A stretch of 64,000 nt of DNA, taken from assembly GCF_003334385.1 (NCBI RefSeq), contig NZ_QOWN01000022.1. The stretch is one strand, 5' to 3'. Origin of the DNA: Escherichia coli. GTDB lineage: Bacteria; Pseudomonadota; Gammaproteobacteria; Enterobacterales; Enterobacteriaceae. Below the pieces are notes generated by a model. That model did no database searches, was not told the origin of the DNA, and saw only the letters and a program-made list of their open reading frames with translations. The position numbers were made by a program, and so were the translations under genes. This document shows positions 62,566 to 63,540 of the stretch, piece by piece (within the stretch, counting starts at the first letter, position 1; each line of letters begins with the position of its first letter).

Positions 62566-62994
62566 ATGGGTTTTCGTAGCGCATCAATTCTTACGTTGAT
62601 TATTAGTGGGATTATTATCGGGTGCACTGATGCTGTATCGACAAATTATCATGACCGTACATCATATTACTCCGATAAAGCAATAGAGACACAGTATGTG
62701 AGTTCATCTGAACGTACTTCTGATGTTAGTGAGGATATCCGTCTGTATGCCCATCAAATCAAGAGCGCCATCGAAAAACAGTTCGGGGATGCGAGTAAGT
62801 ATTCAGGAAAAGAGTGTACACTGAGAATGCATATGGCCCCGAATGGCCTTCTACTGGAGGTTAAAAGAGAAAGTGGAGACCTCGATTTATGTCGTGAAGC
62901 GATGAATGCGATAAAGAATGCTGATATACCTGCCCCCCCTTCGCCGGAAGTATATAAAGTATTTCAAAATGGGGTGCTGGATTTTAAACCCTGA
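62566..62994 (+). CDS. lipoprotein with TolA domain III-like C-terminal domain
   Basis: 142-aa ORF; signal peptide plus lipobox IIGC; C-terminus YAHQIKSAIEKQFGDASKYSGKECTLRMHMAPNGLLLEVKRESGDLDLCREAMNAIKNADIPAPPSPEVYKVFQNGVLDFKP closely parallels recalled E. coli TolA C-terminus. Confidence 0.75.
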   Translation: MGFRSASILTLIISGIIIGCTDAVSTNYHDRTSYYSDKAIETQYVSSSERTSDVSEDIRLYAHQIKSAIEKQFGDASKYSGKECTLRMHMAPNGLLLEVKRESGDLDLCREAMNAIKNADIPAPPSPEVYKVFQNGVLDFKP

Positions 62995-63144
62995 TATTTA
63001 TTGTTTTGTAATAAACGGTTTCGGCTTAGGTTTGTTCTGACACAGCTACGGCACTGAGCTAAATTTAGCGGATAGTCAGCTCTGAGCCAGTGGCGGACGT
63101 AACAACTACTATTGCTGAGATTTTAATGGATTGAGGAGCAAGAA

Positions 63145-63540
63145 GTGGGATTAAAGAAAATCGTTATGTTGACTTTTTGGGTCGGTTTTGTTGCGGGATG
63201 CACACCTTTACACCCTTCAGATTGCCACAAAACTACTGCTACAGGTAGTTGCAGTTCAGGACGCTGGGATGATCAGGATGAATGGGGGGCGCAAGCGCGG
63301 GGAATCAGAGCTGCAATTAATGCCAAACTTGATGAGCCGCATAACTGGAAAGGGAAAAAATGCAGGTTGCATATGGAATTCTCTCAGGATGGCACGGCGT
63401 TAAAAATATCTACCAGTAACGGTGATAAAGCCTATTGCGAAGCGATAAAGTCCGCAGCTCATAAAGCCAAATTTCCGGCCTTCAACAATCCGGAAGTCTA
63501 CAGAGATTTTCAGAAATCTGGCTTTGACATGCGAGGTTAG
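63145..63540 (+). CDS. second, diverged lipoprotein with TolA domain III-like C-terminus
   Basis: 131-aa ORF (GTG start, GAGGAG RBS); lipobox VAGC; shares KCxLxMxF...G..L.....GD...C.A...A.....P....PEVY..FQ pattern with upstream paralogue. Confidence 0.7.
   Translation: MGLKKIVMLTFWVGFVAGCTPLHPSDCHKTTATGSCSSGRWDDQDEWGAQARGIRAAINAKLDEPHNWKGKKCRLHMEFSQDGTALKISTSNGDKAYCEAIKSAAHKAKFPAFNNPEVYRDFQKSGFDMRG

Follow-up and report, generated by a model that had tools for sequence, protein, structure and literature searches.

A 64,000-nucleotide stretch of Escherichia coli DNA (contig NZ_QOWN01000022.1 of assembly GCF_003334385.1; hereafter, the window) contains two tandem open reading frames in a Rac-like prophage, ORF1 and ORF2, each of which encodes a predicted lipoprotein ending in a domain related to domain III of the host protein TolA (TolA-III). 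We give roughly even odds (a probability of about 0.5) to the reading that these proteins are decoys, tethered to the outer membrane and facing the periplasm, which make the cell tolerant of filamentous phages and group A colicins. The sequence-only reading of this DNA had proposed either a decoy of this kind, acting in superinfection exclusion or colicin tolerance, or a modulator of the host Tol–Pal system; both proposals are plausible, and the comparative evidence set out below strengthens them. The protective phenotype itself is a prediction from sequence comparison.

Both open reading frames carry the signal peptides and the lipoboxes (IIGC and VAGC) that had been assigned to them at the outset, and the two translations agree with those given then. 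Each signal peptide runs from a positively charged start through a hydrophobic core to the lipobox, that of ORF1 being MGFRSASILTLIISGIIIG followed by Cys20 (IIGC/TD, with Thr at position +2) and that of ORF2 MGLKKIVMLTFWVGFVAG followed by Cys19 (VAGC/TP, again with Thr at +2). The pattern [LVI][ASTVI][GAS]C was used to define a lipobox and a +2 residue other than Asp to define outer-membrane sorting; ORF1 and ORF2 display both of these features of bacterial lipoproteins (Lgt/LspA pathway, Lol sorting). Because Thr and not Asp occupies +2, the established +2 rule predicts Lol-dependent sorting of the two proteins to the outer membrane, and they are likewise expected to be lipidated and to reside there. 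In ORF1 the signal peptide is followed by a linker of ~35 residues and by TolA domain III (residues 55–142), ending in GVLDFKP, and in ORF2 by CHKTTATGSCSSGRWDDQDEWG, a conserved linker that contains Cys, and then by a diverged TolA domain III, which ends in GFDMRG. A GAGGA ribosome-binding site precedes ORF1, downstream of a promoter-like site. The GTG start of ORF2 is supported by its plasmid homologues (pO157 and IncB/O/K/Z), which have an ATG at the same aligned position after the same ribosome-binding site, kept as GAGGAGCAA.

The TolA domain III-like C-termini proposed for both proteins are borne out, the similarity being far greater than chance would give. The Pfam TolA profile PF06519 matches ORF1 with an E-value of 3.2e-23 (model positions 4–96 of 96) and ORF2 with one of 1.5e-14 (model positions 10–92 of 96). 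Alignment with phmmer to the TolA domain III chains of the Protein Data Bank (PDB 1S62, 3QDP, 1TOL and 2X9A) placed residues 55–142 of ORF1 on residues 334–421 of E. coli TolA without a gap (E ~5e-28, ~59% identity), and the TolA C-terminus that the sequence-only reading had quoted was correct. ORF2 matches the same chains at an E-value of 5e-9; it is only 29% identical to ORF1 and ~29–30% identical to TolA-III, and the earlier description of it as a diverged paralogue that keeps the two cysteines holds, since the disulfide cysteines (C363 and C388 in TolA) are invariant in every alignment, including those of ORF1 and ORF2. The ORF1 domain as modelled with AlphaFold fits the C-terminal domain of E. 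coli TolA (2x9a_B, from PDB 2X9A, the complex of this domain with g3p of phage If1) with a root-mean-square deviation of 0.6 Å over 88 columns and a template modelling score of 0.96. For ORF2 the TolA domain III fold is predicted, from the profile match only.

ORF1 and ORF2 are not themselves TolA. They lack both the N-terminal transmembrane anchor (domain I) and the helical domain II, and lie outside the ybgC-tolQRA-tolB-pal-cpoB operon. Against the full-length profile PRK09510 (cut-off 213 bits) they score 107.8 and 53.7 bits, respectively, both far below the cut-off, and against TIGR02794 (cut-off 59.45) ORF1 passes at 75.6 on its C-terminal domain alone while ORF2 fails at 47.2; the positions matched in these profiles are limited to 265–362 or 293–386. 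The passing score of ORF1 accounts for the misnaming of such proteins as ‘cell envelope integrity protein TolA’, and other sources also name short members of the family as if they were full TolA. In contrast to TolA, the two proteins are without the transmembrane helix that interacts with TolQR and have a predicted lipid anchor in the opposite membrane, so that transmission of the proton-motive force would be impossible for them. In RefSeq record NZ_CP033250.1, ORF1 is flagged by PGAP as a tolA pseudogene (‘incomplete, missing N-terminus’) and ORF2 is begun at an internal ATG, with loss of the charged start of its signal peptide; both treatments are annotation errors. The ORF1 family is listed in PHROG 5772 as of ‘unknown function’.

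The surfaces by which TolA-III is exploited are well defined. Its β3 strand (residues ~415–421) takes up a strand from the N-terminus of TolB, from the N1 domain of g3p (g3p-N1) and from colicin N (PMC4339652; PMC7391070). The backbone hydrogen bonds of this strand, at D418 and K420, are needed for binding of TolB, colicin N (ColN) and g3p, and all three interactions are abolished by D418P or K420P (PMC4339652). On the opposite edge, the strand 375–380 (LLDIKP) binds colicin A together with K368, K379 and K396 (PMC3365938). ORF1 shares with the E. coli domain not only the fold and the disulfide but an identical β3 motif, LDFKP, and its colicin A strand is almost the same (LLEVKR for LLDIKP), with K379 and K396 kept and K368 replaced by His. 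Among 74 short proteins of the family, the β3 residues are conserved as much as, or more than, in 55 full-length TolAs (L417 0.72, D418 0.69, F419 0.81 and K420 0.55 in the short proteins, with D418 at 0.36 in the full-length set). The ORF2 subfamily differs in the residues themselves, ending in F[DE]M[KR]G (FDMRG in ORF2), but keeps the alternation of hydrophobic, acidic, hydrophobic and basic positions, and has a strongly conserved linker of its own, CHKTTAxGxCxSGxWDDQDEWG. Binding of such ligands by the ORF1 and ORF2 domains would be consistent with these features.

If the proteins act as decoys, a TolA domain III joined to a lipoprotein signal, which replaces the inner-membrane anchor and the long helical domain II of TolA, would hang in the periplasm from the outer membrane on a flexible linker, where the translocation domains of colicins and g3p-N1 first emerge. 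There, genuine TolA would have a rival for the ligands that attach to domain III by β-strand addition: the N1 domain of g3p, from filamentous phages specific for pili, the group A colicins N, A, K and E1, through their translocation domains, and the N-terminus of TolB, which E-type colicins need. Having no connection to the TolQR motor, the decoys could not transduce force, and a lysogen or plasmid-bearing cell would be tolerant because captured invaders would be neither energised nor pulled across the envelope. TolA binds ColN with an affinity of 1 µM and TolB with one of ~40 µM (PMC4339652), a difference which suggests that a moderate level of decoy could trap invaders with little effect on TolB and Tol–Pal.

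Laboratory constructs give this mechanism a precedent. Levengood-Freyermuth et al. reportedly observed in 1993 that TolA domain III, exported alone to the periplasm, makes cells tolerant of colicins and filamentous phages, and also leaky. In the converse arrangement, periplasmic g3p-N1 conferred resistance to colicin A and lowered phage uptake by 4 logs, effects attributed to sequestration of TolA (PMC10424213). In both cases a free domain or ligand titrates the interaction of TolA with its ligands, as proposed here; the constructs differ in being artificially over-expressed, whereas ORF1 and ORF2 are natural, selected genes with a predicted lipid tether. The same principle, applied to the sister transducer, is seen in exported C-terminal fragments of TonB, which are dominant-negative for TonB-dependent uptake. 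Among natural exclusion factors, Llp of T5, Cor of phi80 and N15 and TraT of the F plasmid offer a parallel: they are small lipoproteins of the outer membrane, specified by phage or plasmid genes at accessory positions of the genome, and they block the entry of competitors, as ORF1 and ORF2 would. None of these is a copy of a host protein or related in sequence to ORF1 and ORF2: Llp and Cor plug the surface receptor FhuA by binding to it and TraT has OmpA as its target, whereas ORF1 and ORF2 would mimic a periplasmic co-receptor and not mask a surface receptor.

The distribution of the wider family also fits a role of this kind. Searching 1.84 billion representative proteins with a profile gave 745 matches; 95 of the 150 best clusters (at 50% identity) have no more than 170 residues, and at least 59 of those 95 carry a lipobox. 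Named members come from Klebsiella, Erwinia, Salmonella, Enterobacter, Serratia and Pseudescherichia. All six of the mobile-element homologues examined have a lipobox and their N-termini are otherwise unrelated; mobile elements have converged on the combination of lipoprotein and TolA-III. Neighbour-joining groups the short proteins in three separate clades (ORF1-type, ORF2-type and Klebsiella-plasmid-type), not scattered beside the host TolAs, and the ORF2-type clade contains short proteins only; among full-length proteins, E. coli TolA is nearest to ORF1, at 60% identity. Recent capture of host tolA was considered as an origin and rejected, because these clades are deep.

ORF1-type variants (65–68% identity) are found in Stx-like phages, where they fill the stx slot: Q, a DNA methylase gene and tRNA genes precede them, and nanS-p and the holin gene follow. 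In one Stx-like phage contig (L050) a porin gene encoding 380 residues, with an OmpC/NmpC-like N-terminus, stands between Q and the ORF1-type gene, and here two envelope-altering accessory genes, for the phage porin and the TolA-III lipoprotein, adjoin. ORF2-type genes are present on some 550–600 plasmids (87% identity in DNA, 88% in protein). On the conjugative plasmids IncK2/Z and IncB/O, which have type I mating-pair formation systems (MPF_I), the gene is fixed in the nikA-nikB region, 68 nt after the relaxase gene, and on pO157 it lies between hok/sok and toxB; the annotated start of this plasmid gene, as in the pO157 entry, is probably 12 codons too far upstream. More distant versions of the TolA-III lipoprotein are carried by MPF_I plasmids of Klebsiella. 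On 10-kb ColRNAI cloacin plasmids of K. pneumoniae, which are common in clinical Klebsiella, the TolA-III lipoprotein gene overlaps by 4 nt a gene for a Sec-exported TonB C-terminal domain (CTD) of 121 residues without a lipobox (E 1.3e-15 to the E. coli TonB CTD), and the resulting operon adjoins the cloacin-immunity-lysis operon. This TonB CTD, which belongs to the TonB_C family and is not encoded in the window, is a natural counterpart, beside a TolA-III lipoprotein, of the TonB fragments mentioned above.

The pili of MPF_I plasmids are the receptors for phage If1. The recurrence of the homologues on elements with a direct stake in Tol-dependent invaders, both MPF_I conjugative plasmids and cloacin plasmids, fits the decoy reading, as does the pairing on the cloacin plasmid of motor-less copies of both outer-membrane energy transducers beside the operon of a Tol-dependent bacteriocin. 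The presence in the same prophage of the anti-phage system IetAS also fits the pattern.

The pair is widespread and well preserved within E. coli. Of 5426 complete E. coli genomes, about 770 have the 1.4-kb region nearly complete, and its identity is almost always 99% or higher; both genes are also present in the isolated phage mEp460_ev081. The ratio of nonsynonymous to synonymous substitution rates (dN/dS) is 0.35 for ORF1 (0.29 for its domain) against the 80%-identical variant of a Stx-like prophage, and 0.12 for ORF2 (0.08 for its domain) against the pO157 copy, values which indicate that both are under purifying selection. Among ~60 copies on viral contigs, gathered by single-protein scans, there was no nonsense mutation in ORF1, and frameshifts were seen in two copies only, in one subgroup of ORF2. 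As far as sequence can tell, ORF1 and ORF2 are functional genes.

The window passes from the E. coli chromosome (tyrR to ttcA) into the Rac-like prophage, integrated at ttcA, which contains intR, xisR, recET, kilR and sieB and, further on, a Q-like block (DUF1367-DUF1364-DUF1133). ORF1 and ORF2 sit between the Q-like gene and the holin gene essD, the interval in which lambdoid phages classically carry accessory genes, and a complete lysis cassette follows (essD, rrrD and Rz, for holin, endolysin and spanin). Ahead of ORF1 is a sigma-70 promoter-like site, its end 30 nt from the ATG, and a terminator-like hairpin between ORF2 and essD closes the two-gene cassette, whose G+C content is 42–46% against 48% for the window. 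Position, terminator hairpin and low G+C content are those of a ‘moron’, the promoter being a match to the consensus that is not conserved, and ORF1 and ORF2 look like an accessory cassette of this type in a lambdoid Rac-like prophage. Expression in the lysogen would be in keeping with this layout. SOS control was considered, and no LexA box was found within the window; on the cloacin plasmid the sole perfect LexA box is that of the cloacin promoter. The Rac remnant of K-12 presumably lacks the Q-to-lysis segment, and ORF1 and ORF2 may have escaped attention for this reason.

Several observations weigh against the decoy reading. The promoter-like site is not conserved in the variants of Stx-like phages, which have unrelated AT-rich DNA upstream, and because ORF1 and ORF2 lie in the late operon they might be expressed in lytic growth alone. 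Binding of TolB by a decoy could harm the envelope, and the diverged C-terminal strand of ORF2 (GFDMRG) means that its ligands may differ. Docking was modelled with AlphaFold as a single-chain fusion in which a Gly-Ser linker of 30 residues joins TolB residues 22–43 to the domain. The ORF1 fusion spoke for the decoy reading: residues 3–6 of TolB formed a β-strand in a β-ladder and β3 was lengthened, the predicted local distance difference test score (pLDDT) being 73 for the first ten residues against 36–45 for the linker, and the ORF1 domain in this model best matched the ligand-bound conformer of TolA. The control with genuine E. coli TolA-III left the TolB peptide undocked (pLDDT 48, no strand). 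Because the control failed, and the pairing strand could not be inspected, the result is weak and gives only a hint that a β3-type site may be open in ORF1. One short member of the family (P0062) lies in an ordinary chromosomal neighbourhood, so the family is not exclusively mobile and not every member need be a defence gene. PADLOC has no model or match for ORF1 or ORF2, and searches of the full-text literature available yielded no study of these TolA-III lipoproteins and no report of phenotype, expression or binding for any member of the family. The domain family is known to databases; a natural mobile-element copy of the tip of a host periplasmic co-receptor, used as a decoy, would be new.

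Modulation of Tol–Pal, the second proposal of the sequence-only reading, we regard as unlikely, though it deserves the closest comparison. Tethered TolA-III would here bind the N-terminus of TolB on TolB–Pal complexes at the outer membrane, where real TolA could then no longer pull; Pal would stay sequestered and the outer membrane would loosen, with tol-like vesiculation and leakage that would aid envelope disruption or the release of progeny or cargo in lytic growth. Strong Q-dependent late transcription is implied by the location of the genes, which lie after the Q-like gene and ahead of essD/rrrD/Rz here and occupy the stx slot in Stx-like phages, and the conserved β3 strand is the site that TolB shares with g3p and ColN; it was also the TolB strand that was docked onto ORF1 in the fusion model. 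The TolA substitutions D418P and K420P, which block binding of TolB, give a full tol phenotype (PMC4339652), and a review suggests that vesicle production could be regulated through interactions of TolB (PMC7391070). Against these points, the lysis genes of the phage already make up a full cassette, the affinity of TolA for TolB is low (~40 µM; PMC4339652), and the promoter-like site and terminator of the cassette resemble those of genes expressed in the lysogen. The plasmid homologues (in the nikB operon, on pO157 and on small ColE1-type plasmids) have no lytic cycle to serve and a constitutive tol phenotype would be costly, and the pairing with a TonB CTD on the cloacin plasmid suits the blocking of import better than lysis. 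Sequence cannot separate the two actions, because both use the same binding site; they are not mutually exclusive, and which of them prevails would depend on how much protein is made and when.

A second explanation, to which we attach an equally low probability, is that the TolA/TonB-type fold has been recruited to some other partner, unconnected with the known TolA ligands, such as an outer-membrane protein or porin that other phages exploit, a conjugation component, peptidoglycan or CpoB. It would apply most to the ORF2 subfamily, whose clade is separate and made up of short proteins only, whose identity to TolA-III is just ~29–30%, and which has its private linker motif and C-terminus; the location of the ORF2-type gene inside the nikA-nikB transfer operon of I-complex plasmids, the porin gene that adjoins the ORF1-type gene in L050 and the existence of a chromosomal family member are also in keeping with it. 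A new partner would hardly be expected to leave both known ligand strands nearly unchanged, as they are in ORF1, or to make the TolB/g3p/ColN strand the most conserved surface element of the short family, and even the C-terminus of ORF2 keeps the alternation of residue types. Finally, that the genes are inert relics, functionless fragments of host tolA produced by illegitimate recombination, as the PGAP label and the 60% identity of ORF1 to E. coli TolA might imply, is very improbable given complete reading frames, each with a ribosome-binding site and a newly gained lipoprotein signal peptide, dN/dS values of 0.08–0.35 with nearly all copies intact, deep and diverse lineages of short proteins, and retention of the pair, almost always at 99% identity or above, in ~770 genomes and a viable phage.

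Other features of the prophage were noted alongside the two genes, and their positions are given in the table. Outside one cargo slot, the window is 99.3–99.9% identical to strain ECCHD184; that slot holds the complete IetAS (IteA/IteS) system in the window and, in ECCHD184, genes for a BCCT transporter, DUF2254, LysR, GGCT and MFS proteins. A strong promoter-like site downstream of the Q-like gene, with the hairpin that follows it, is a candidate late promoter with a Q-sensitive terminator. Immediately upstream of ORF1 is a match to the Rfam small RNA (‘sRNA’) family STnc100, of which there are five copies in the late region of a Stx-like prophage and one in phage mEp460_ev081. STnc100 was considered as an element specific to the TolA-like genes and rejected, being a repeated structured element of lambdoid late regions.

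Table. Features of the cassette, its prophage and related loci. Coordinates refer to the window unless another locus is named.
Feature	Position	Strand	Remarks
IetAS system, complete	56283-59676	+	
IetA, AAA ATPase	56283-57437	+	NF042959, 526.6 bits against a cut-off of 510
IetS, S8 peptidase	57412-59676	+	NF042956, 1042.8 bits
Q-like gene	60979-61521		
Terminator-like hairpin, bidirectional	61603-61630		aaaaaaaccgcttaatgcggttttttta; directly after the Q-like gene
Promoter-like AAGACA-18-TATAAT with a terminator-like hairpin within 60 nt	61892-61980		~370 nt downstream of the Q-like gene
STnc100 match	62269-62455	+	86.6 bits; fold z-score -4.0
Sigma-70 promoter-like site	62507-62536	+	TTGAGC-18 nt-TATAAT; 10/12 consensus match, consensus scan only
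ORF1	62566-62994	+	ATG start; 142 aa; predicted lipoprotein precursor with TolA domain III
ORF2 ribosome-binding site	63131-63136	+	GAGGAG, ahead of the GTG start; read from the sequence
ORF2	63145-63540	+	GTG start; 131 aa; predicted lipoprotein precursor with diverged TolA domain III
Intrinsic-terminator-like hairpin	63666-63693	+	AGCUCGC-UACG-GCGAGCU then UUUUUAUAUU; -13 kcal/mol, z -2.15
essD (holin)	ATG at 63792		
Further STnc100 copies	L007 5482-5694; L007 7453-8410; L002 5891-6081		
ORF2-type plasmid copies	L006 8995-9426; L009, L010 and L011 3965-4396; L004 5815-6246		
TolA-III lipoprotein (123 aa) and TonB CTD operon	L003 (plasmid CP043367.1) 5641-6374	minus	10,060-bp ColRNAI plasmid
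Phage porin gene	L050 1649-2791	minus	Stx-like phage contig

Genes for TolA-III lipoproteins are at present concealed by the labels ‘TolA’ and tolA pseudogene. If the decoy reading is true, roughly one sequenced E. coli strain in seven has a built-in factor that makes it tolerant of group A colicins and Ff/If-type phages, and the same factor is present on pO157, on IncK/B/O resistance plasmids and on common ColE1-type plasmids of Klebsiella. This would bear on colicin ecology, on plasmid biology and on the hosts used for phage display, as well as on bacteriocin and phage therapeutics directed against E. coli and Klebsiella, and may help to explain how pilus-specific filamentous phages are restrained on conjugative plasmids. 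More tentatively, and at somewhat less than even odds, motor-less exported TolA-III lipoproteins, joined on some plasmids by TonB CTDs, may form a widespread and hitherto unrecognised class of broad-spectrum entry immunity on prophages and plasmids of the Enterobacterales, protecting pilus-bearing and bacteriocin-producing cells by co-receptor mimicry against filamentous phages and Tol- or Ton-dependent bacteriocins. The decoy would represent a new principle of entry exclusion, in which a host periplasmic co-receptor domain is copied and uncoupled from its motor, as opposed to the masking of a surface receptor.

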